From the NCBI GenBank assembly GCA_964016885.1, contig CAXHJY010000498.1:1-35893 (forward strand): a stretch of 35,893 nucleotides of DNA, given 5' to 3'. The stretch comes from Eledone cirrhosa. Lineage: Eukaryota. Below are positions 18,881 through 35,893 of the stretch, piece after piece; position 1 is the first letter of the stretch; the number at the start of each line of letters is the position of its first letter. The position numbers and the translations under genes are program-made. The notes beneath the pieces were generated by a model that was not told where the DNA came from, ran no database searches, and was given only the letters and a program-made list of their open reading frames with translations.

Positions 18881-21800
18881 ATATGAATATAGACATAGAA
18901 TATTCGAAAATATTCTGTATGTTTATAATAAACATTTTGAAGACCTAATCGCTATAGAATAGAATACGTCACGTATTACAATTAGATTCTCGATAAAAGC
19001 AAGGGAAGTAATCTACGCGTTTCATTCTTGTTAGAATTCATCAGGACTACATATCCAGTGCTTTTATCGAGAATGACACAGCTAGAGACTTATAGAATAC
19101 TTAGCTGTGTACAGGAACTGGTTTGAAAGAGCGGTTGCCGGTCCGGCAGAAATTAGAAATTGGAATAAATGCTCTGAAATAGCGATATATATATGAATAT
19201 AGACATAGAATATTCGAAAATATTCTGTATGTTTATAATAAACATTTTGAAGACCTAATCGCTATAGAATAGAATACGTCACGTATTACAATTAGATTCT
19301 CGATAAAAGCAAGGGAAGTAATCTACGCGTTTCATTCTTGTTAGAATTCATCAGGACTACATATCCAGTGCTTTTATCGAGAATGACACAGCTAGAGACT
19401 TATAGAATACTTAGCTGTGTACAGGAACTGGTTTGAAAGAGCGGTTGCCGGTCCGGCAGAAATTAGAAATTGGAATAAATGCTCTGAAATAGCGATATAT
19501 ATATGAATATAGACATAGAATATTCGAAAATATTCTGTATGTTTATAATAAACATTTTGAAGACCTAATCGCTATAGAATAGAATACGTCACGTATTACA
19601 ATTAGATTCTCGATAAAAGCAAGGGAAGTAATCTACGCGTTTCATTCTTGTTAGAATTCATCAGGACTACATATCCAGTGCTTTTATCGAGAATGACACA
19701 GCTAGAGACTTATAGAATACTTAGCTGTGTACAGGAACTGGTTTGAAAGAGCGGTTGCCGGTCCGGCAGAAATTAGAAATTGGAATAAATGCTCTGAAAT
19801 AGCGATATATATATGAATATAGACATAGAATATTCGAAAATATTCTGTATGTTTATAATAAACATTTTGAAGACCTAATCGCTATAGAATAGAATACGTC
19901 ACGTATTACAATTAGATTCTCGATAAAAGCAAGGGAAGTAATCTACGCGTTTCATTCTTGTTAGAATTCATCAGGACTACATATCCAGTGCTTTTATCGA
20001 GAATGACACAGCTAGAGACTTATAGAATACTTAGCTGTGTACAGGAACTGGTTTGAAAGAGCGGTTGCCGGTCCGGCAGAAATTAGAAATTGGAATAAAT
20101 GCTCTGAAATAGCGATATATATATGAATATAGACATAGAATATTCGAAAATATTCTGTATGTTTATAATAAACATTTTGAAGACCTAATCGCTATAGAAT
20201 AGAATACGTCACGTATTACAATTAGATTCTCGATAAAAGCAAGGGAAGTAATCTACGCGTTTCATTCTTGTTAGAATTCATCAGGACTACATATCCAGTG
20301 CTTTTATCGAGAATGACACAGCTAGAGACTTATAGAATACTTAGCTGTGTACAGGAACTGGTTTGAAAGAGCGGTTGCCGGTCCGGCAGAAATTAGAAAT
20401 TGGAATAAATGCTCTGAAATAGCGATATATATATGAATATAGACATAGAATATTCGAAAATATTCTGTATGTTTATAATAAACATTTTGAAGACCTAATC
20501 GCTATAGAATAGAATACGTCACGTATTACAATTAGATTCTCGATAAAAGCAAGGGAAGTAATCTACGCGTTTCATTCTTGTTAGAATTCATCAGGACTAC
20601 ATATCCAGTGCTTTTATCGAGAATGACACAGCTAGAGACTTATAGAATACTTAGCTGTGTACAGGAACTGGTTTGAAAGAGCGGTTGCCGGTCCGGCAGA
20701 AATTAGAAATTGGAATAAATGCTCTGAAATAGCGATATATATATGAATATAGACATAGAATATTCGAAAATATTCTGTATGTTTATAATAAACATTTTGA
20801 AGACCTAATCGCTATAGAATAGAATACGTCACGTATTACAATTAGATTCTCGATAAAAGCAAGGGAAGTAATCTACGCGTTTCATTCTTGTTAGAATTCA
20901 TCAGGACTACATATCCAGTGCTTTTATCGAGAATGACACAGCTAGAGACTTATAGAATACTTAGCTGTGTACAGGAACTGGTTTGAAAGAGCGGTTGCCG
21001 GTCCGGCAGAAATTAGAAATTGGAATAAATGCTCTGAAATAGCGATATATATATGAATATAGACATAGAATATTCGAAAATATTCTGTATGTTTATAATA
21101 AACATTTTGAAGACCTAATCGCTATAGAATAGAATACGTCACGTATTACAATTAGATTCTCGATAAAAGCAAGGGAAGTAATCTACGCGTTTCATTCTTG
21201 TTAGAATTCATCAGGACTACATATCCAGTGCTTTTATCGAGAATGACACAGCTAGAGACTTATAGAATACTTAGCTGTGTACAGGAACTGGTTTGAAAGA
21301 GCGGTTGCCGGTCCGGCAGAAATTAGAAATTGGAATAAATGCTCTGAAATAGCGATATATATATGAATATAGACATAGAATATTCGAAAATATTCTGTAT
21401 GTTTATAATAAACATTTTGAAGACCTAATCGCTATAGAATAGAATACGTCACGTATTACAATTAGATTCTCGATAAAAGCAAGGGAAGTAATCTACGCGT
21501 TTCATTCTTGTTAGAATTCATCAGGACTACATATCCAGTGCTTTTATCGAGAATGACACAGCTAGAGACTTATAGAATACTTAGCTGTGTACAGGAACTG
21601 GTTTGAAAGAGCGGTTGCCGGTCCGGCAGAAATTAGAAATTGGAATAAATGCTCTGAAATAGCGATATATATATGAATATAGACATAGAATATTCGAAAA
21701 TATTCTGTATGTTTATAATAAACATTTTGAAGACCTAATCGCTATAGAATAGAATACGTCACGTATTACAATTAGATTCTCGATAAAAGCAAGGGAAGTA

Positions 21801-24800
21801 ATCTACGCGTTTCATTCTTGTTAGAATTCATCAGGACTACATATCCAGTGCTTTTATCGAGAATGACACAGCTAGAGACTTATAGAATACTTAGCTGTGT
21901 ACAGGAACTGGTTTGAAAGAGCGGTTGCCGGTCCGGCAGAAATTAGAAATTGGAATAAATGCTCTGAAATAGCGATATATATATGAATATAGACATAGAA
22001 TATTCGAAAATATTCTGTATGTTTATAATAAACATTTTGAAGACCTAATCGCTATAGAATAGAATACGTCACGTATTACAATTAGATTCTCGATAAAAGC
22101 AAGGGAAGTAATCTACGCGTTTCATTCTTGTTAGAATTCATCAGGACTACATATCCAGTGCTTTTATCGAGAATGACACAGCTAGAGACTTATAGAATAC
22201 TTAGCTGTGTACAGGAACTGGTTTGAAAGAGCGGTTGCCGGTCCGGCAGAAATTAGAAATTGGAATAAATGCTCTGAAATAGCGATATATATATGAATAT
22301 AGACATAGAATATTCGAAAATATTCTGTATGTTTATAATAAACATTTTGAAGACCTAATCGCTATAGAATAGAATACGTCACGTATTACAATTAGATTCT
22401 CGATAAAAGCAAGGGAAGTAATCTACGCGTTTCATTCTTGTTAGAATTCATCAGGACTACATATCCAGTGCTTTTATCGAGAATGACACAGCTAGAGACT
22501 TATAGAATACTTAGCTGTGTACAGGAACTGGTTTGAAAGAGCGGTTGCCGGTCCGGCAGAAATTAGAAATTGGAATAAATGCTCTGAAATAGCGATATAT
22601 ATATGAATATAGACATAGAATATTCGAAAATATTCTGTATGTTTATAATAAACATTTTGAAGACCTAATCGCTATAGAATAGAATACGTCACGTATTACA
22701 ATTAGATTCTCGATAAAAGCAAGGGAAGTAATCTACGCGTTTCATTCTTGTTAGAATTCATCAGGACTACATATCCAGTGCTTTTATCGAGAATGACACA
22801 GCTAGAGACTTATAGAATACTTAGCTGTGTACAGGAACTGGTTTGAAAGAGCGGTTGCCGGTCCGGCAGAAATTAGAAATTGGAATAAATGCTCTGAAAT
22901 AGCGATATATATATGAATATAGACATAGAATATTCGAAAATATTCTGTATGTTTATAATAAACATTTTGAAGACCTAATCGCTATAGAATAGAATACGTC
23001 ACGTATTACAATTAGATTCTCGATAAAAGCAAGGGAAGTAATCTACGCGTTTCATTCTTGTTAGAATTCATCAGGACTACATATCCAGTGCTTTTATCGA
23101 GAATGACACAGCTAGAGACTTATAGAATACTTAGCTGTGTACAGGAACTGGTTTGAAAGAGCGGTTGCCGGTCCGGCAGAAATTAGAAATTGGAATAAAT
23201 GCTCTGAAATAGCGATATATATATGAATATAGACATAGAATATTCGAAAATATTCTGTATGTTTATAATAAACATTTTGAAGACCTAATCGCTATAGAAT
23301 AGAATACGTCACGTATTACAATTAGATTCTCGATAAAAGCAAGGGAAGTAATCTACGCGTTTCATTCTTGTTAGAATTCATCAGGACTACATATCCAGTG
23401 CTTTTATCGAGAATGACACAGCTAGAGACTTATAGAATACTTAGCTGTGTACAGGAACTGGTTTGAAAGAGCGGTTGCCGGTCCGGCAGAAATTAGAAAT
23501 TGGAATAAATGCTCTGAAATAGCGATATATATATGAATATAGACATAGAATATTCGAAAATATTCTGTATGTTTATAATAAACATTTTGAAGACCTAATC
23601 GCTATAGAATAGAATACGTCACGTATTACAATTAGATTCTCGATAAAAGCAAGGGAAGTAATCTACGCGTTTCATTCTTGTTAGAATTCATCAGGACTAC
23701 ATATCCAGTGCTTTTATCGAGAATGACACAGCTAGAGACTTATAGAATACTTAGCTGTGTACAGGAACTGGTTTGAAAGAGCGGTTGCCGGTCCGGCAGA
23801 AATTAGAAATTGGAATAAATGCTCTGAAATAGCGATATATATATGAATATAGACATAGAATATTCGAAAATATTCTGTATGTTTATAATAAACATTTTGA
23901 AGACCTAATCGCTATAGAATAGAATACGTCACGTATTACAATTAGATTCTCGATAAAAGCAAGGGAAGTAATCTACGCGTTTCATTCTTGTTAGAATTCA
24001 TCAGGACTACATATCCAGTGCTTTTATCGAGAATGACACAGCTAGAGACTTATAGAATACTTAGCTGTGTACAGGAACTGGTTTGAAAGAGCGGTTGCCG
24101 GTCCGGCAGAAATTAGAAATTGGAATAAATGCTCTGAAATAGCGATATATATATGAATATAGACATAGAATATTCGAAAATATTCTGTATGTTTATAATA
24201 AACATTTTGAAGACCTAATCGCTATAGAATAGAATACGTCACGTATTACAATTAGATTCTCGATAAAAGCAAGGGAAGTAATCTACGCGTTTCATTCTTG
24301 TTAGAATTCATCAGGACTACATATCCAGTGCTTTTATCGAGAATGACACAGCTAGAGACTTATAGAATACTTAGCTGTGTACAGGAACTGGTTTGAAAGA
24401 GCGGTTGCCGGTCCGGCAGAAATTAGAAATTGGAATAAATGCTCTGAAATAGCGATATATATATGAATATAGACATAGAATATTCGAAAATATTCTGTAT
24501 GTTTATAATAAACATTTTGAAGACCTAATCGCTATAGAATAGAATACGTCACGTATTACAATTAGATTCTCGATAAAAGCAAGGGAAGTAATCTACGCGT
24601 TTCATTCTTGTTAGAATTCATCAGGACTACATATCCAGTGCTTTTATCGAGAATGACACAGCTAGAGACTTATAGAATACTTAGCTGTGTACAGGAACTG
24701 GTTTGAAAGAGCGGTTGCCGGTCCGGCAGAAATTAGAAATTGGAATAAATGCTCTGAAATAGCGATATATATATGAATATAGACATAGAATATTCGAAAA

Positions 24801-25423
24801 TATTCTGTATGTTTATAATAAACATTTTGAAGACCTAATCGCTATAGAATAGAATACGTCACGTATTACAATTAGATTCTCGATAAAAGCAAGGGAAGTA
24901 ATCTACGCGTTTCATTCTTGTTAGAATTCATCAGGACTACATATCCAGTGCTTTTATCGAGAATGACACAGCTAGAGACTTATAGAATACTTAGCTGTGT
25001 ACAGGAACTGGTTTGAAAGAGCGGTTGCCGGTCCGGCAGAAATTAGAAATTGGAATAAATGCTCTGAAATAGCGATATATATATGAATATAGACATAGAA
25101 TATTCGAAAATATTCTGTATGTTTATAATAAACATTTTGAAGACCTAATCGCTATAGAATAGAATACGTCACGTATTACAATTAGATTCTCGATAAAAGC
25201 AAGGGAAGTAATCTACGCGTTTCATTCTTGTTAGAATTCATCAGGACTACATATCCAGTGCTTTTATCGAGAATAACACAGCTAGAGACTTATAGAATAC
25301 TTAGCTGTGTACAGGAACTGGTTTGAAAGAGCGGTTGCCGGTCCGGCAGAAATTAGAAATTGGAATAAATGCTCTGAAATAGCGATATATATATGAATAT
25401 AGACATAGAATATTCGAAAATAT
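18881..25423 (-). mobile_element. Tandem array of 310-bp hammerhead-containing units (non-LTR retrozyme-like), left arm: 21 full units plus 33 bp, ribozyme on the minus strand
   Basis: ATATGAATATAGACATAG recurs every 310 bp from 18881 to 25391; the only difference I saw is G>A at 25275. Confidence 0.9.
18986..19074 (-). ncRNA. Type-I hammerhead ribozyme (first of 21 minus-strand copies, period 310)
   Basis: Reverse complement of the motif described at 25554-25642. Confidence 0.9.
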
Positions 25424-28400
25424 GTCTATATTCATATATATATCGCTATTTCAGAGCATTTATTCCAATTTCTAATTTCTGCCGGACCGGCAACCGCTCT
25501 TTCAAACCAGTTCCTGTACACAGCTAAGTATTCTATAAGTCTCTAGCTGTGTCATTCTCGATAAAAGCACTGGATATGTAGTCCTGATGAATTCTAACAA
25601 GAATGAAACGCGTAGATTACTTCCCTTGCTTTTATCGAGAATCTAATTGTAATACGTGACGTATTCTATTCTATAGCGATTAGGTCTTCAAAATGTTTAT
25701 TATAAACATACAGAATATTTTCGAATATTCTATGTCTATATTCATATATATATCGCTATTTCAGAGCATTTATTCCAATTTCTAATTTCTGCCGGACCGG
25801 CAACCGCTCTTTCAAACCAGTTCCTGTACACAGCTAAGTATTCTATAAGTCTCTAGCTGTGTCATTCTCGATAAAAGCACTGGATATGTAGTCCTGATGA
25901 ATTCTAACAAGAATGAAACGCGTAGATTACTTCCCTTGCTTTTATCGAGAATCTAATTGTAATACGTGACGTATTCTATTCTATAGCGATTAGGTCTTCA
26001 AAATGTTTATTATAAACATACAGAATATTTTCGAATATTCTATGTCTATATTCATATATATATCGCTATTTCAGAGCATTTATTCCAATTTCTAATTTCT
26101 GCCGGACCGGCAACCGCTCTTTCAAACCAGTTCCTGTACACAGCTAAGTATTCTATAAGTCTCTAGCTGTGTCATTCTCGATAAAAGCACTGGATATGTA
26201 GTCCTGATGAATTCTAACAAGAATGAAACGCGTAGATTACTTCCCTTGCTTTTATCGAGAATCTAATTGTAATACGTGACGTATTCTATTCTATAGCGAT
26301 TAGGTCTTCAAAATGTTTATTATAAACATACAGAATATTTTCGAATATTCTATGTCTATATTCATATATATATCGCTATTTCAGAGCATTTATTCCAATT
26401 TCTAATTTCTGCCGGACCGGCAACCGCTCTTTCAAACCAGTTCCTGTACACAGCTAAGTATTCTATAAGTCTCTAGCTGTGTCATTCTCGATAAAAGCAC
26501 TGGATATGTAGTCCTGATGAATTCTAACAAGAATGAAACGCGTAGATTACTTCCCTTGCTTTTATCGAGAATCTAATTGTAATACGTGACGTATTCTATT
26601 CTATAGCGATTAGGTCTTCAAAATGTTTATTATAAACATACAGAATATTTTCGAATATTCTATGTCTATATTCATATATATATCGCTATTTCAGAGCATT
26701 TATTCCAATTTCTAATTTCTGCCGGACCGGCAACCGCTCTTTCAAACCAGTTCCTGTACACAGCTAAGTATTCTATAAGTCTCTAGCTGTGTCATTCTCG
26801 ATAAAAGCACTGGATATGTAGTCCTGATGAATTCTAACAAGAATGAAACGCGTAGATTACTTCCCTTGCTTTTATCGAGAATCTAATTGTAATACGTGAC
26901 GTATTCTATTCTATAGCGATTAGGTCTTCAAAATGTTTATTATAAACATACAGAATATTTTCGAATATTCTATGTCTATATTCATATATATATCGCTATT
27001 TCAGAGCATTTATTCCAATTTCTAATTTCTGCCGGACCGGCAACCGCTCTTTCAAACCAGTTCCTGTACACAGCTAAGTATTCTATAAGTCTCTAGCTGT
27101 GTCATTCTCGATAAAAGCACTGGATATGTAGTCCTGATGAATTCTAACAAGAATGAAACGCGTAGATTACTTCCCTTGCTTTTATCGAGAATCTAATTGT
27201 AATACGTGACGTATTCTATTCTATAGCGATTAGGTCTTCAAAATGTTTATTATAAACATACAGAATATTTTCGAATATTCTATGTCTATATTCATATATA
27301 TATCGCTATTTCAGAGCATTTATTCCAATTTCTAATTTCTGCCGGACCGGCAACCGCTCTTTCAAACCAGTTCCTGTACACAGCTAAGTATTCTATAAGT
27401 CTCTAGCTGTGTCATTCTCGATAAAAGCACTGGATATGTAGTCCTGATGAATTCTAACAAGAATGAAACGCGTAGATTACTTCCCTTGCTTTTATCGAGA
27501 ATCTAATTGTAATACGTGACGTATTCTATTCTATAGCGATTAGGTCTTCAAAATGTTTATTATAAACATACAGAATATTTTCGAATATTCTATGTCTATA
27601 TTCATATATATATCGCTATTTCAGAGCATTTATTCCAATTTCTAATTTCTGCCGGACCGGCAACCGCTCTTTCAAACCAGTTCCTGTACACAGCTAAGTA
27701 TTCTATAAGTCTCTAGCTGTGTCATTCTCGATAAAAGCACTGGATATGTAGTCCTGATGAATTCTAACAAGAATGAAACGCGTAGATTACTTCCCTTGCT
27801 TTTATCGAGAATCTAATTGTAATACGTGACGTATTCTATTCTATAGCGATTAGGTCTTCAAAATGTTTATTATAAACATACAGAATATTTTCGAATATTC
27901 TATGTCTATATTCATATATATATCGCTATTTCAGAGCATTTATTCCAATTTCTAATTTCTGCCGGACCGGCAACCGCTCTTTCAAACCAGTTCCTGTACA
28001 CAGCTAAGTATTCTATAAGTCTCTAGCTGTGTCATTCTCGATAAAAGCACTGGATATGTAGTCCTGATGAATTCTAACAAGAATGAAACGCGTAGATTAC
28101 TTCCCTTGCTTTTATCGAGAATCTAATTGTAATACGTGACGTATTCTATTCTATAGCGATTAGGTCTTCAAAATGTTTATTATAAACATACAGAATATTT
28201 TCGAATATTCTATGTCTATATTCATATATATATCGCTATTTCAGAGCATTTATTCCAATTTCTAATTTCTGCCGGACCGGCAACCGCTCTTTCAAACCAG
28301 TTCCTGTACACAGCTAAGTATTCTATAAGTCTCTAGCTGTGTCATTCTCGATAAAAGCACTGGATATGTAGTCCTGATGAATTCTAACAAGAATGAAACG

Positions 28401-29809
28401 CGTAGATTACTTCCCTTGCTTTTATCGAGAATCTAATTGTAATACGTGACGTATTCTATTCTATAGCGATTAGGTCTTCAAAATGTTTATTATAAACATA
28501 CAGAATATTTTCGAATATTCTATGTCTATATTCATATATATATCGCTATTTCAGAGCATTTATTCCAATTTCTAATTTCTGCCGGACCGGCAACCGCTCT
28601 TTCAAACCAGTTCCTGTACACAGCTAAGTATTCTATAAGTCTCTAGCTGTGTCATTCTCGATAAAAGCACTGGATATGTAGTCCTGATGAATTCTAACAA
28701 GAATGAAACGCGTAGATTACTTCCCTTGCTTTTATCGAGAATCTAATTGTAATACGTGACGTATTCTATTCTATAGCGATTAGGTCTTCAAAATGTTTAT
28801 TATAAACATACAGAATATTTTCGAATATTCTATGTCTATATTCATATATATATCGCTATTTCAGAGCATTTATTCCAATTTCTAATTTCTGCCGGACCGG
28901 CAACCGCTCTTTCAAACCAGTTCCTGTACACAGCTAAGTATTCTATAAGTCTCTAGCTGTGTCATTCTCGATAAAAGCACTGGATATGTAGTCCTGATGA
29001 ATTCTAACAAGAATGAAACGCGTAGATTACTTCCCTTGCTTTTATCGAGAATCTAATTGTAATACGTGACGTATTCTATTCTATAGCGATTAGGTCTTCA
29101 AAATGTTTATTATAAACATACAGAATATTTTCGAATATTCTATGTCTATATTCATATATATATCGCTATTTCAGAGCATTTATTCCAATTTCTAATTTCT
29201 GCCGGACCGGCAACCGCTCTTTCAAACCAGTTCCTGTACACAGCTAAGTATTCTATAAGTCTCTAGCTGTGTCATTCTCGATAAAAGCACTGGATATGTA
29301 GTCCTGATGAATTCTAACAAGAATGAAACGCGTAGATTACTTCCCTTGCTTTTATCGAGAATCTAATTGTAATACGTGACGTATTCTATTCTATAGCGAT
29401 TAGGTCTTCAAAATGTTTATTATAAACATACAGAATATTTTCGAATATTCTATGTCTATATTCATATATATATCGCTATTTCAGAGCATTTATTCCAATT
29501 TCTAATTTCTGCCGGACCGGCAACCGCTCTTTCAAACCAGTTCCTGTACACAGCTAAGTATTCTATAAGTCTCTAGCTGTGTCATTCTCGATAAAAGCAC
29601 TGGATATGTAGTCCTGATGAATTCTAACAAGAATGAAACGCGTAGATTACTTCCCTTGCTTTTATCGAGAATCTAATTGTAATACGTGACGTATTCTATT
29701 CTATAGCGATTAGGTCTTCAAAATGTTTATTATAAACATACAGAATATTTTCGAATATTCTATGTCTATATTCATATATATATCGCTATTTCAGAGCATT
29801 TATTCCAAT
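25421..29809 (+). mobile_element. Same 310-bp retrozyme-like array, inverted right arm: 14 full units plus 49 bp, ribozyme on the plus strand
   Basis: TATGTCTATATTCAT recurs every 310 bp from 25421 to 29761; ends ...TATTCCAAT then (TA)n. Confidence 0.9.
25554..25642 (+). ncRNA. Type-I hammerhead ribozyme (first of 14 plus-strand copies, period 310)
   Basis: ATTCTCGATAAAAGCA ctggatat GTAGTC CTGATGA ATTCT aaca AGAAT GAAA CGCG TA GATTAC ttccct TGCTTTTATCGAGAAT: perfect core, stem III palindrome ACGCGT, 16-bp distal stem I; predicted GUA cleavage after A25614. Confidence 0.92.
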
Positions 29810-30386
<577 letters not shown>

Positions 30387-30423
30387 CAATATTAAATAAA
30401 TGGAAAACTATATTTATAAAACC

Positions 30424-30500
30424 ATATTTATTTCATTATATATATTTCGGGGATATCATATTAACAATATGCTATGCCTTCATCAGACAAAATACAATAT
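30424..30500 (-). ncRNA. Putative type-I hammerhead in PLE-B inverted pLTR
   Basis: Reverse complement: AUAUU-g-UAUUUUGU-CUGAUGA-aGGcAUAgCAUAUU(guu)AAUAUGaUAUccCC-GAAA-UAUAUA-UA-AUGAAAUA-AAUAU; stem III is the palindrome AUAUAUAU. Confidence 0.65.
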
Positions 30501-31216
30501 AAACAGTTTTATAGACAAATAGGTTCGACATACCGTTATAACACCGACTTCATTTGAAGAGGTTTACTCTGGCTGTGAACAAATTTTACACAGAGAGAAA
30601 GAAAAAGAGAGAAAACAGAAAGAAAGACAGAAAACGAAGAAAAGGAAGAAAAAGAAGAGAAAGAGGAAATGCATGGAACAAAATAGAGAGATGGAAAGAT
30701 AGATAAAGCGAAGAACTTCATGTAAAGAAACAGAAAGAGATATATATATATAGAGAGAGAGAGGAAATAGATAGATATATATATATATATAGAAAATTAG
30801 GTAGTGGGAGGTCATTTTGAGTAAATGTATCAATGATACGTTTATTTATTTATTTATTTATTTAGCTCAAGTATTAATGTAAGGGAGATATATATAGAGA
30901 GAAAAAAAAATATAGGGAGAGGAGAGGAAAACAATAGAGAGAGGAAAAAATAGCGAGAGAAAAAAATTTAAAATAGCCAGATATATTCGAGGCGTAAAAA
31001 TCCTATGTTTTAATGTATTAATATTTATAAAACTTACACTATATTGTAAAATCAGTATTCCTGAATGAGACAAGTATCTATAATGTGTGAAATATTACTA
31101 CATTTTCGTCTGTATTAGATTTATCAAAGTGGAATGCACGCCACCTGATTCTCCTTATAAAAGAGTCAGATTTATCTATTAATTGTTTTATAAAGTCTTT
31201 GTTTCTAGGTAGAGGT

Positions 31217-33421
31217 ATGTCTTTTAGAGAGGAAGTAATCTTAAAGAATTCCATTTTTCCAGTTATAATATGAAGCGCTCAACAGTATTGGAGCAAGATA
31301 CATGGAAAGTTATATTTAAAATTGTTGGGTTACAACTAGATAAATCTAATACAGACGAAAATGTCTCGGACTTAAACAAAGTTTTCAAATCTAAAAGAAA
31401 TCCACCCCCTAACAAACTTTTATCTGACTTTGAAAACGATATAATTTCTATCATACAAGGGGTCAAATTCAAGAGAAATTTTAAAGGCCAGGAATATCTG
31501 AAAGGCATTAAGGATAAAATTGAGAGCTTAGAGAAAACTGAGAAGATCTTGGTGAAATCTGACAAGACCAACAACCTCTATGGAGTGCGGAAAGACATGT
31601 ATAATGGCCTCATACTGAAAGAGCTGAGGAAAAAGTACAAGGTAGCAGATAAGGCCGAACTTGAGAAAATGAATGTCGAAGCATCTTGTATAATGCACTA
31701 GTTGGAAATTGAGAACAGAACACAACCTTTCGTGCCCAGGAAACCGAAGATCAATATGAAGGACCACAAGAGGAATTTTGAAAATGACCTGTCAGTTAGA
31801 TTGATCGCACCTTCAAAATCGGACCTGGGCAAATTAAGCAAAAACATTCTTGACAGGGTGATACAGCAAATTAAGAACTTGGATTGTGTATCTAACCTGA
31901 GCTTGTGGAAGGGAACTGGAGAGGTTGTGGAGTGGTTTAGGCAAATTAAATATAACAATAATAATAGGTTTATTCAACTTGATATAGCTAACTATTATTC
32001 TTCTATTACCCCTAGTCTACTAAATAAGGCACTAAATTACGCATTCAAACATACCGCCCTAACTAGCAAAGAAATGCATATTATATTATCGGCTAGGAAA
32101 ACTTTGATAGAATTTAATGACAAATTATGGACCAGAGCAGATAGAGACAGCAATTTTGACATAACTATGGGATCTTCCGACTCAGCTCAGGTAACTGACC
32201 TTGTGGGCTTATTTTAATCAATTCGCTACATAGGAAAATACCTGGTACTACCGGAGGTTTATATAGGGATGACATGCTTTTACTTATTAATAATAATAAC
32301 CCTGAACTAAATAGAAAATGTAAACAAATTACAAAATTTTTTAATTACTTTAACCTTAAAATAGAAATTGAGAACAACCATAGAATAGTCAATTTCCTAG
32401 ATATAACGTTAAATCTCAACACATGTCTCCACTATCCTTTTCACAAGTTGAATGAAAACTTAAACTATGTCAACTTTAACTCTAACCACCCCAGATCTGT
32501 CAAAAACACCATAGTAAACTCAGTTCAAAAACGTATCTCTAGGATCTCGTCGAATAGATTGATTTTCGACGAAAAGGCCCAATACTATAATGAAGCACTA
32601 GCTCGGGCAGGATATGCTGATAAGATTGTGTACATAGATAATGATAGACAAACTAAACAAAGTAACAACTTTTTTAATTACGGCAACAACATTAACAACT
32701 ATAATAGAAAGCATTACAATAATTCCAAAGGACAAAAAAGAAATAGAACTAGGAACATAATTTGGTTTGCCGCCCCTTTCTCACTAAACATTAGAACCCA
32801 CATCGCTAAATTATTTTTCAAAGCTCTTGATAATCGCTTCCCTAGAACACATAGGTATCACTCAATTTTCAATAGGCATACAATTAAATTAACCTACTCA
32901 TCCACTAAAAATTTAGCACAAAATATTAATAGAATAAATAATAGGAACTTAAAACCTACTGATAATAGCATAAATAATATACAAGTTAACAAATGTAACT
33001 GTAGAGATAGATCTAAATGTCCGTTAAATAACAACTGCTTAGTTAAAAATATAGTATACAATTGTAATGTTAATACTGACTCTAATTCTTTTAACTACGT
33101 CGGTTCCACATCGACGGAATTTAAACTTCGCTATAATAACCACAAGAATTCTTTCACAGATCCAAATAAAAATCTTCAACGGCACTATCAGGCGTACTCT
33201 GGCAACTTAAGCTAGATAACGTTAGATATTCGACGGCTTGGAATATAGTCTCAAGAGGGATTCCTTTTAATTCATCCTCTGAGACATGTGACCTCTGCGC
33301 AGAGGAGATATTCTTTATACTAAAATCTAAAAATTCCCTTAACCTACGGACAAATTTATTCAGTTGTTGCAAACATAGATTAAACTCAACGTTTAAATAT
33401 AAATTTAAATTTAAAATGTAG
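31217..33421 (+). pseudogene. Disrupted PLE RT-GIY-YIG ORF (Naiad-like)
   Basis: KSDKTNNLY, KDHKRNF, RLIAPSKSDLGKLSK, DIANYYSSI, FDITMGSSDSAQVTDLVG, GLYRDD, NFLDITLNL, SNHP, CNCRDRSKCPLNNNC linker, NIVY...YVGST...FKLRYNNH and C-terminal CDLC...CCKH. TAG at 31699, TAA/frameshift at ~32215, frameshift at ~33170. The start position is uncertain. Confidence 0.88.
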
Positions 33422-33810
33422 TATATTTAGTTTGATTTATATTTATATTTATATTTATATGGGAAACTAGCCGATAAATTTTTGATTGCTAAATCTTTGA
33501 TTCCTTCTTTTTACTCTCTTTTTATTGTTTATTTTTATTTTATTTTATTTTTATCTAAACATTCCTCATGAAAAATTAAGCTACCCTAAAAGCTGATGCT
33601 CCAAATTTTTGAATAAACCTTACACTAGATAAACTTCTATATTAAATATAAGAACATATATAGACCTAATTGGACATCATAATCTTTTTGAAATGATCTT
33701 TGCTAGATGTGATTTGATGGATAATTTTTGGCTTTGTCTTGTAAAGAACTTGGCAATATATTGTCAATTAACTTTGAAGGGTTGATCTTTGTGGTGTATT
33801 TTTATTTTTA

Positions 33811-33841
<31 letters not shown>

Positions 33842-34666
33842 TTTATTTTTATTATTGTAGTATTCTATAATATTTTCTATAATATTTTTTATTTTTATTG
33901 TATTTTTAATATCTTTAATATGTAAATTTTTAATACGTAATATTTTTAATACGTAGTATGCTTAATATATAATATTTTTATTATGTAATATTCTTTCGTA
34001 ATATTTTTATTTTTTTATTTTTTAGTGTTCTATTCTATATTTTTATTTATTATTATTATTGTTATCTTTTTATTTTTAGTTTTGTTTAAGATATATATTT
34101 TTATTAGTATATTGAAATCTGCTCTCTACTTCTGCTTGATAGATAATCTGGTAGAGTAATGACATGAATAATAATACACATATTTGTATGCTCAAATTTT
34201 TATACCACATTGAGAACGTTTTCCGTGAACTTAGAGTTTTGCAGAGTGAATCAGTTAGATTCGCATGGATGTTTGTAGCTGTCACATAAACATATGAATT
34301 TTTTTTAAAACTAAACATAAGATAATTAATTTTCACACATTATAGATACTTGTCTCATTCAGGAATACTGATTTTACAAAATAGTGTAAGTTTTATAAAT
34401 ATTAATACATTAAAACATAGGATTTTTACGCCTCGAATATATCTGGCTATTTTTAAATTTTTTTCTCTCGCTATTTTTTCCTCTCTCTATTGTTTTCCTC
34501 TCCTCTCCCTATATTTTTTTCTCTCTATATATATATCTCCCTTACATTAATACTTGAGCTAAATAAATAAATAAATAAATAAACGTATCATTGATACATT
34601 TACTCAAAATGACCTCCCACTACCTAATTTTCTATATATATATATATATATATATGTATCTATTTC

Positions 34667-35893
<1,227 letters not shown>

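Follow-up and report, generated by a model that had tools for sequence, protein, structure and literature searches.

The window, meaning here the whole 35,893-nucleotide stretch of DNA from Eledone cirrhosa, carries a 310-bp unit that is repeated with a period of 310 in two opposed arms, a result with which TRF concurs. Both arms together measure 10,935 bp and lie inside a TA microsatellite. The features of the array are as follows.

18225 to 18874, unstranded: left flank, an interrupted (TA)n tract that is the target
18875 to 25423, minus strand: left arm of 6,549 bp, with 21.13 tandem 310-bp retrozyme units and 21 of 21 ribozyme cut sites intact
18875 to 18884, plus strand: start site A, a 10-nt AT tract of the unit that merges into the (TA)n target, at RNA positions 129-139 from the ribozyme cut
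25275, plus strand: sole variant, G>A, confined to the last full left-arm unit and 146 bp from the junction
25408 to 25423, unstranded: inversion junction, a 13-nt spacer plus a 3-bp overlap (25421-25423), within the unit's strongest short hairpin, which has an 8-bp stem
25421 to 29809, plus strand: right arm, inverted, of 4,389 bp, with 14.16 units and 14 of 14 cut sites intact
29599 to 29664, plus strand: type I hammerhead, one example of the one per unit, with its core at 29614 and a predicted cut after 29644
29774 to 29809, plus strand: 'tail' of 24-36 nt that the left end lacks, with start site B (RNA positions 163-165) as its end
29810 to 30386, unstranded: right flank, an interrupted (TA)n tract that matches the left flank in strand polarity and in the style of its interruptions, and is not the reverse complement of that flank

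In the left arm, the ribozyme (RNA) sense is the minus strand, and the plus strand is that of the cDNA, with its start at the left flank. The right arm has its RNA sense on the plus strand and its cDNA on the minus strand, starting at the right flank. The arms are head-to-head, and because this orientation puts the RNA 3' sides outermost, both outer ends of the array are cDNA starts in (TA)n. Each arm has a terminal redundancy of 39-49 bp, and the inner ends of the two arms lie 16 nt apart in phase. Interruptions of the TA tracts are TT rather than AA at a ratio of 17:0 in the left flank and 15:1 in the right; with (TA)n on both sides, a target-site duplication is unreadable. A preliminary description had placed the array at 18881-29809 and divided its copies as 21 + 14. 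The division and the right edge agree with the arms as measured here, but 18881 falls inside a left edge that is ambiguous over 18875-18884, where the 10-nt AT tract is common to unit and flank.

The unit is a non-LTR retrozyme. Metazoan non-LTR retrozymes are tandem units of 150-450 bp with one type I hammerhead each, described as dimers to 62-mers in coral and with up to 300 units elsewhere (PMC7229834, PMC7761336; bioRxiv 10.64898/2026.07.22.740005). At 310 bp in 21.1 + 14.2 copies, the array falls within this class of tandem repeats of about 150-450 bp. It shares with these elements a low GC content (0.33-0.35, about 34%), the absence of coding capacity (no reading frame of 60 amino acids or more lies wholly within the array), one type I hammerhead per unit and a monomer that is predicted to fold as a strongly self-paired circle (against shuffles, linear z -4.73 and circular z -4.57, with 0 of 100 shuffles reaching the value in either case). 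By motif scan, the hammerhead has a stem I of 6 bp plus an extension, a stem II of 5 bp and a very short palindromic stem III, and its cut-site junctions are intact in all 35 units. Rfam HH9 matches it with 23 bits (E 0.0049), below the gathering score of 52, and at gathering thresholds Rfam gives 0 matches in the window. There is no LTR layout around the array, and no match to the unit among 72,556 plasmid and 50,697 phage records. As far as the description in the relevant part of PMC7229834 goes, the newt and axolotl satellite is similar, with a unit of about 330 bp and a very short palindromic stem III; its hammerhead is dimer-dependent there and is expected to cut as a dimer. Unlike those amphibians, the carrier of the present array is probably an invertebrate, to judge by the Hydra-type PLE in the window. 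The array is unlike described metazoan retrozymes in being two-armed and head-to-head, with a tail of the Penelope-like-element (PLE) type, and essentially unmutated. The retrozyme papers cited here describe head-to-tail repeats without analysis of array ends, and the word 'inverted' occurs 0 times in PMC7229834.

The neighbouring PLE copies are listed here.

1 to 2648, minus strand: broken PLE with RT, C-terminal GIY-YIG and a CX4CXXC linker, with weak Pfam matches below cut-offs
16286 to 18224, minus strand: second, 5'-truncated copy of the PLE at 1-2648, abutting the left TA flank of the array
30740 to 34690, plus strand: broken PLE of Hydra type, TA-rich on both flanks, with inverted ends, DKT and CxCX5C motifs and 125 homologues

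The PLE reading frames in the window are interrupted by stops and frameshifts. Pfam gives any match for 4 of 11 frames, with the RT and GIY-YIG of the copies at 1-2648 and 16286-18224 below threshold, and 0 families for the four frames of the copy at 30740-34690. In protein searches the best named match was a coral protein at 39% identity, with three unnamed matches at 45-48%. The copy at 30740-34690 has the Hydra-clade DKT motif, the CxCX5C linker and the (TA)n insertion described for such elements (PMC8557442), and is a candidate for the type of helper that may have mobilised the array. Its only hammerhead-like match is loose, at 31061 and 34362; the copy at 1-2648 has an inverted pLTR with a minimal hammerhead-like motif. 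An autonomous PLE has its own RT and GIY-YIG, and the array is non-coding; it behaves like PLE cargo and is not a PLE. By sequence comparison, kinship of the unit with the local PLE pLTR appears marginal, with no convincing homology: alignments to 10 of 11 non-retrozyme regions, local PLE ends included, are no better than shuffles, and for the left end of the Hydra-type copy, the sole region above its shuffles, the alignment is gappy and AT-rich and its score was reached by 1 of 500 shuffles on retest.

The ends of the array can be compared with those of another insertion in the window.

11521 to 12035, unstranded: older related retrozyme insertion, head-to-head in (TA)n, with an altered hammerhead core

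This older relative is identical to the unit at 224 of 318 ungapped columns (70%), a score that 0 of 500 shuffles reach, and the head-to-head layout is found in both. Its long arm (11521-11854) comprises 1.06 periods of 316 bp with an 18-bp terminal redundancy and starts at site B, and its short arm (about 11854-12035) starts at site A. Since the long arm begins at A in the array and at B in the older relative, both sites act as starts. All four outer ends of the two insertions fall on these two sites, one of each per insertion. In both insertions the end of site B lies 21 nt beyond a shared anchor, on one homologous base, a coincidence of about 1 in 39 if every AT-ending position were acceptable. 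Outer ends at two internal sites 24-36 nt apart are the signature of the PLE 'tail', and the upper part of this offset overlaps the published PLE range of 30-40 bp.

Inverted copies, tails and a (TA)n bias are hallmarks of PLE (PMC8557442), and with a purified PLE protein, nicking and extension are seen on either target strand, AT-rich DNA is the preferred target, and synthesis begins at a pair of internal sites that bound a tail of 30-40 bp (PMC11167929). The array likewise has an inverted, truncated copy joined at its 5' end, a tail at one end, two internal RT start sites, apparent extension of both target strands and a (TA)n microsatellite target, as in PLE insertions (PMC8557442) and in the Poseidon reactions in vitro (PMC11167929). 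It differs from PLE insertions in having no RT or endonuclease gene, and each of its arms repeats a 310-nt unit 14-21 times, where PLE insertions have partial tandems of a 3-kb element. In L1 twin priming, joining occurs at a short overlap, as it does here. L1 twin priming, a model of Ostertag and Kazazian from 2001, is also similar in that, as PMC2246262 describes it, both sides of the break prime cDNA to give an inversion. The array is unlike it in its (TA)n target, in the absence of poly(A) and in having one sequence copied many times over in both arms, a product that cannot come from a linear mRNA.

These ends, together with the ribozyme and the older relative, carry the reading of the array as a single insertion. 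It is proposed, with a probability of roughly 0.45, that a PLE protein supplied in trans inserted this non-LTR retrozyme recently and in one event, with a circle as template and with both target strands primed. By analogy with the family, a donor array elsewhere would be transcribed, cut by the hammerhead to 310-nt monomers and ligated into circles. The PLE endonuclease would nick both strands of the (TA)n tract, and each target 3' end, at the end positions that are observed, would prime RT at internal site A or B. Each RT would then circle the template, for 21 and 14 laps, displacing its own product, with all laps presumably made by the RT itself. The resulting same-sense cDNAs of 6.5 and 4.4 kb would be joined head-to-head at 3 bp and filled in, giving a 4.4-kb palindrome.

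In both arms the sequence runs cleanly through the ribozyme cut site again and again. A linear monomer template is disfavoured, because starts 129-165 nt from the cut would run out after 165 nt, and because 35 of 35 cut-site junctions are perfect and the long arm of the older relative also exceeds one period. Template jumping between linear monomers was judged unlikely as well: such jumps usually add or lose bases at junctions, and all 35 cut-site junctions are exact. The preliminary description had argued from unit identity for one recent RT event on a circular template, with about 11 kb of processive synthesis. A single event on circular or multimeric RNA is still the best reading, although identity is not its support. 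The figure of 11 kb has to be given up: because the arms are opposed, the longest RNA-templated run is 6.5 kb, and the second arm would be either a fold-back templated by DNA or a separately primed cDNA of 4.4 kb.

The retrozyme class and the rolling-circle idea are already in print, as a model. Multi-lap PLE reverse transcription of a circle was proposed for metazoan retrozymes in 2020 from the existence of circles (PMC7229834, PMC7761336), and a 2026 preprint states that the mechanism of mobilisation has yet to be elucidated (bioRxiv 10.64898/2026.07.22.740005). Several points count against the two-end circle model. The PLE papers cited here contain no demonstration of a PLE RT rolling round a circle, the RNA used by the PLE protein in vitro was for the most part uncleaved (PMC11167929), and de novo PLE insertions in Chlamydomonas are mostly very short, with a median of 128 bp (PMC9977147). 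The Rfam score below the family threshold and the lack of convincing pLTR homology are further such points, and the 10-nt complementarity to (TA)n also accounts for site A. That unprocessed RNA is the main substrate in vitro (PMC11167929) favours a two-end PLE insertion templated by a long read-through transcript that a homogeneous donor array had produced and that stayed uncleaved. Such a template accounts equally well for the ends and for the perfect cut-site junctions, stem III is weak and 8 of 9 Xenopus dimers were uncleaved (bioRxiv 2026.07.22.740005). This version is unlikely, given that it requires a transcript of at least 21 units to escape 21 ribozymes, as well as a uniform donor, and that retrozyme RNAs are reported mainly as monomers, with dimers and trimers (PMC7229834).

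In the assembled sequence, the near-total identity of the 35 units is as the preliminary description had it. When all full units were compared (21 left, 14 right), 34 were identical and one differed at a single base, the G>A at 25275 in the last full left-arm unit by the inversion, with no indels among the units or elsewhere in the 10,935 bp. The substitution rate is 1 in 10,625 (95% CI 2.4e-6 to 5.2e-4). Paired copies elsewhere in the window differ by 6/446, 10/378, 3/179, 3/204, 80/1,787 and 57/281 substitutions (1.35-20%), and the divergence between the arms, 1/4,389, is lower than in each of three inverted pairs compared with it (Fisher p 2e-4, 4e-6 and 9e-11). With the PLE frames broken as well, the earlier statement that every other element is decayed holds relative to the array, and is made here in relative terms only.

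Near-identity dates the array as recent but does not fix the mechanism, because fast local duplication yields the same outcome in simulation; slow unequal exchange is the only route that identity alone excludes. A satellite formed by slow exchange is marked by variants shared between neighbours and by divergence among units, and the array has one private variant in 35 units (slow-model P 0.003 or less). In a toy model, the probability of at most one variant is 0.78, 0.27, 0.067 and 0.003 for 0.01, 0.03, 0.05 and 0.1 mutations per unit between duplications, respectively. Therefore duplication every ~30,000 generations or faster, with an assumed 3e-9 per site, fits too, and the earlier preference for RT over unequal crossing-over is sound for slow exchange but not for fast local expansion.

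That fast expansion gives a like identity is a point against the two-end circle model. It would start from a short head-to-head insertion of about 1.13 + 1.16 units, similar to the older relative, and enlarge it on the spot through fast unequal exchange, slippage or break-induced replication. The 39-49 bp redundancy of each arm could seed it, the simulated probability of at most one variant is 0.27-0.78 at duplications every 0.03-0.01 mutations per unit, and local amplification with unequal crossover is invoked in the 2026 preprint (bioRxiv 10.64898/2026.07.22.740005). Such an origin is nonetheless quite unlikely: both arms would need independent recent expansion and yet be mutually identical, slow rates are excluded (P 0.003 at 0.1), and the older relative, with 18 bp of redundancy, never expanded.

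One variant also fits, by analogy, the error rates measured for rolling-circle RT, at which 1.2-3.0 errors are expected and at most one has a probability of 0.19-0.65, the enzymes measured including no PLE RT (PMC11331410). As here, Roll-Seq in vitro gives a concatemer whose RT errors each occur in a single unit, at about 1-3 per 10 kb over 3-10 passes of a 1-kb circle; unlike here, the enzymes are those of a group II intron, R2 and L1 in a tube, with no integration (PMC11331410). The G>A at 25275 may have arisen as an error of the RT, by mutation at a later time or in the consensus.

At 25553, the mirror position of this variant in the right arm, the base is unchanged. An unmirrored variant is, weakly, to be expected of two independent cDNAs, and it speaks against a single cDNA that rolls 21 laps, snaps back at the unit hairpin and copies its own displaced strand for 14 units, the right flank being attached to the hairpin afterwards, perhaps once a tail sequence had been cut. 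This would still be one rolling-circle event. Inner ends that lie 16 nt apart in the best local hairpin, around a 13-nt spacer, are more simply explained by snap-back than by the two-end circle model, and the observed junction differs from a perfect hairpin product by the loss of 5 nt between a pair of short direct repeats. Tails, for their part, have been ascribed to endonuclease resolution (PMC8557442). Such a position of the inner ends has a chance of roughly 1 in 10, and the 3-bp overlap is weak evidence alone, since 6.9% of random junctions have as much. Snap-back is unlikely given that the short arm ends exactly at the start site of the long arm of the older relative, that the junction of that relative is not a hairpin (spacer of about 120 nt, overlap of 1-2 nt) and that the 3-bp register used is weaker than the hairpin's own. 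One-event rolling-circle synthesis, with two-end priming and snap-back counted together, is somewhat more probable than not.

The element and its layout could also be real and the identity or copy number a product of consensus, polishing, collapse or a mis-join of two arrays through a fold-back read; the preliminary description had already allowed for assembly consensus or collapse, and that caveat stands. The lone variant is close enough to the unique junction for short reads to bridge the two (P about 0.03-0.05 for a uniform distribution). Polishing that had flattened the array interior would leave such a pattern, and this is a caution for the two-end circle model. Fold-back reads make up about 0.55-0.6% of nanopore genomic reads (PMC12870357), tandem repeats are a main source of assembly errors (PMC9977147) and the flanks on both sides are of low complexity. 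An artefact of this kind has a low probability, however: the arms stop at different phases, the right flank shares the polarity of the left and is not its reverse complement, the array ends match those of the 0.5-kb relative, which any read would span, and five further inverted insertions occur in the window. About 600 bp of sequence lie within 300 bp of the junction, and they too hold no more than 1 difference. Either arm, at 6.5 or 4.4 kb, is shorter than a typical long read, which counts against an artefact as well. A pure fold-back read, against which the flank polarity argues, was rejected on this ground and on end phase, and a DNA-level inverted triplication was rejected because there is one junction only.

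The end structures tie the retrozyme to PLE chemistry through the inversion, the tail and start sites that are conserved in insertions about 30% apart, and the array is young enough for testing the one-step birth of satellite-sized arrays. More tentatively, the locus may record double rolling-circle retrotransposition, in which a pair of PLE proteins primes both (TA)n strands at the two sites of a 310-nt ribozyme circle that bound the tail and writes 6.5 + 4.4 kb in one step, leaving a natural genomic record at a site that is possibly still polymorphic. If true, this would define the cis sites used by PLE on a non-coding circle, give an in vivo case of kilobase-scale strand-displacing synthesis by a telomerase-related RT and provide a route to long palindromes, with a satellite array and a 4.4-kb palindrome created de novo; if not, the locus is an ordinary young retrozyme array. 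In the boldest form of double rolling-circle retrotransposition, both enzymes would run on one circle, with the second starting seven laps after the first and following it at a distance of a few tens of nucleotides; the starts lie 24-36 nt apart and the stops 16 nt apart, in the same order.

The array, two opposed arms of 310-bp units inside interrupted (TA)n, is laid out as follows, with RNA positions counted from the predicted ribozyme cut.

18875-25423, ribozyme strand minus: left arm, 6,549 bp, 21.13 units of 310 bp (TRF agrees)
25421-29809, ribozyme strand plus: right arm, inverted, 4,389 bp, 14.16 units
Left outer end, RNA 129-139: site A, a 10-nt AT tract blending into the flank
Right outer end, RNA 163-165: site B
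Inner ends of the arms, RNA 101 and 117: within the best short hairpin of the unit

The arms share a 3-bp overlap at the junction (25421-25423), and 24-36 nt separate sites A and B, the two internal sites of the unit where the outer array ends fall. Comparison of the units finds 34 of the 35 full units identical, with no indels; the lone exception is a G>A at 25275, whose mirror in the right arm, base 25553, is unaltered. The near-total identity noted in the preliminary description, with this as the sole substitution, thus holds for the assembled sequence. The units diverge at a single one of 10,625 informative bases (95% CI 2.4e-6 to 5.2e-4), such that, at an assumed mutation rate of 3e-9 per site and generation, the array could be at most ~175,000 generations old, or of nearly zero age if the variant is an RT (reverse transcriptase) or consensus error. 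The other elements in the window are decayed, as also described earlier: six other paired copies are 1.35-20% diverged, and the reading frames of Penelope-like elements (PLEs) are broken.

By every sequence criterion examined, the unit is a non-LTR retrozyme. Each unit carries a type I hammerhead with an intact core, a stem I of 6 bp plus an extension, a stem II of 5 bp and a stem III that is palindromic and very short, a kind reported usually to require a dimer (PMC7229834, PMC7761336). The Rfam match of the unit to HH9 (23 bits, E 0.0049) does not reach the gathering score of 52, a level at which Rfam gives no match across the window. Taken between successive cut sites, the monomer has a predicted fold much more stable than those of shuffled sequences (z -4.73 linear, -4.57 circular). 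The unit has a GC content of ~34%, contains no internal frame of 60 aa and matches no plasmid or phage record.

Because the left arm has its ribozyme strand on minus and the right arm on plus, both outer ends would be cDNA starts if target DNA served as primer. The cut site is traversed 21 times in the left arm and 14 times in the right with no base altered, and since a linear self-cleaved monomer would be exhausted after at most 165 nt, these crossings argue that the template was a circular or multimeric RNA. The most likely origin of the array, with a probability of roughly 45%, begins with nicks on both (TA)n strands; priming at sites A and B would follow, then rolling-circle synthesis yielding cDNAs of 6.5 and 4.4 kb, after which the two would be joined at 3 bp and filled in, much as in L1 twin priming (PMC2246262). 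The array's geometry, start phases, clean cut-site passage and youth are observed; the enzyme, the circle and an RT making all the laps are presumed.

A single cDNA that folded back and copied itself would better account for the hairpin-centred, nearly co-phased junction, but accounts less well for the short arm ending at site B and for the unmirrored variant at 25275, and is unlikely. A long uncleaved transcript as template would fit all the ends; uncleaved RNA was the chief substrate in vitro (PMC11167929), and a preprint reports no cleavage in eight of nine Xenopus dimers (10.64898/2026.07.22.740005). Its probability is put low.

An internal control is provided by an older relative at 11521-12035, a diverged retrozyme insertion that is likewise head-to-head in (TA)n and identical to the array unit at 224 of 318 ungapped columns, a score equalled by none of 500 shuffles. 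Site B is where its long arm (1.06 periods of 316 bp, 18-bp terminal redundancy) begins and site A where its short arm (~180 bp) does, with 3 of 179 sites differing between the arms. Site B ends 21 nt beyond the common anchor in both insertions; because 39 of the 310 unit positions end in AT and are equally able to merge into the flank, this would occur by chance about once in 39. Site A could be explained by plain complementarity to (TA)n, and the agreement at both sites is a single comparison rather than a survey. Both arms of the relative traverse their own cut site; its hammerhead core is altered, and its stem III is longer than that of the array unit.

The identity of the units had been taken to indicate rolling-circle copying. 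In simulations that started each arm as a single unit and lengthened it by duplicating random blocks (4,000 runs at each setting), at most one variant in 35 units was obtained with probabilities of 0.995, 0.97, 0.78, 0.47, 0.27, 0.067, 0.003 and 0 when each unit gained 0.001, 0.003, 0.01, 0.02, 0.03, 0.05, 0.1 and 0.2 mutations from one duplication to the next; a lone variant, where there was one, was private in about half of cases. Slow unequal exchange alone is therefore excluded, as proposed, but fast local duplication yields the same identity, which is thus no proof of a rolling circle. Rapid expansion in place from a short insertion is itself improbable. In published measurements (PMC11331410), none of them on a PLE RT, cDNA errors totalled 113, 175 and 278 per million; these rates predict 1.2-3.0 errors in the array (P of at most one 0.65, 0.43 and 0.19), so that the identity is compatible with rolling-circle RT. 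The single 11-kb synthesis run first envisaged is needed by none of the readings, whether two cDNAs, fold-back, uncleaved transcript or local expansion.

That assembly produced the identity or copy number is doubtful. Fold-back reads are reported at ~0.55-0.6% in nanopore genomic data and are almost absent from HiFi data (PMC12870357). A pure fold-back read would run back along the left arm and on into the left flank; the right arm instead ends at a different phase. The two flanks agree in strand polarity (TT:AA 17:0 left, 15:1 right) and differ in their interruption pattern, although this polarity is partly window-wide and does not establish a single original tract. On the other side, caution is warranted because the array has just one unique internal anchor and the sole variant sits 146 bp from it (P 0.03-0.05 under a uniform distribution). 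Short-read polishing would leave such a pattern; chance or a mutation linked to the junction could also account for it. Long palindromes are reported to be fragile (PMC7999016, PMC4245961), which fits a young insertion.

Retrozyme arrays of up to 62 units in coral (PMC7229834) and 300 elsewhere have been reported, and the model in print for retrozymes has a PLE copying over multiple laps (PMC7761336). A 2026 preprint links retrozymes to the terminal repeats (pLTRs) of PLEs, mentions unequal crossover and leaves the mechanism open (10.64898/2026.07.22.740005). A head-to-head retrozyme array with ends defined by a tail, the extra stretch between sites A and B, did not turn up in searches of open-access literature. 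The retrozyme class is already known; the value of the array is that the rolling-circle model becomes testable. Its inversion, tail and AT-rich target match the pattern of PLE insertions, whose hallmarks include an inverted copy truncated at its 5' side and, at one end, a tail of 30-40 bp (PMC8557442); purified PLE protein nicks and extends both strands of AT-rich DNA, with two internal start sites delimiting the tail (PMC11167929). De novo PLE insertions reported in Chlamydomonas are mostly short (PMC9977147), and products of several kilobases would thus be unusual.

PLE-type insertions crowd the TA tracts of the window, among them the following.

1-2648 and 16286-18224: PLE with RT and GIY-YIG in two copies, weak Pfam matches, CX4CXXC linker
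30740-34690: broken PLE with Hydra-clade motifs DKT and CxCX5C, inverted ends of 391 bp

The first two appear Neptune- or Nematis-like by their linker; they have hammerhead-like motifs in the pLTR (at 98, 2440 and 16532), and their outer ends differ by a ~57-nt extension. The Hydra clade is reported to insert into (TA)n (PMC8557442). Every local PLE copy is broken. Among 11 local regions compared with the unit, only the left end of the 30740-34690 PLE shows a likeness, a marginal one (1/500 shuffles). Inverted arms occur in five insertions besides the array (1-2648, 3055-3302, 11553-12035, 14618-14735 and 30795-34629). Runs of four or more TA make up ~29% of the window (tracts at 2645-35893), and TG exceeds CA on the plus strand in 15 of the 16 tract segments measured, 9100-10340 being reversed, which suggests one giant polarised microsatellite that may serve as an insertion sink.

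A small family with a hammerhead-like motif lies at 2958-3302, 11118-11289 and 30390-30560 (motifs at 3152 minus, 11186 plus and 30486 minus), and one of its copies (3055-3302) also has the head-to-head layout in (TA)n. A small island amid TA tracts (14541-14735) includes a 118-bp stretch that is 98% self-inverted, and a ~200-bp direct repeat (4474-4670 and 5001-5197, 98.5%) flanks another island in TA tracts. An old inverted pair (7230-7458 and 10553-10864, 79-82%) encloses 2.5 kb of TA microsatellite, and a GC-richer island at 12214-12531 loosely resembles a hammerhead at 12444 (minus strand).
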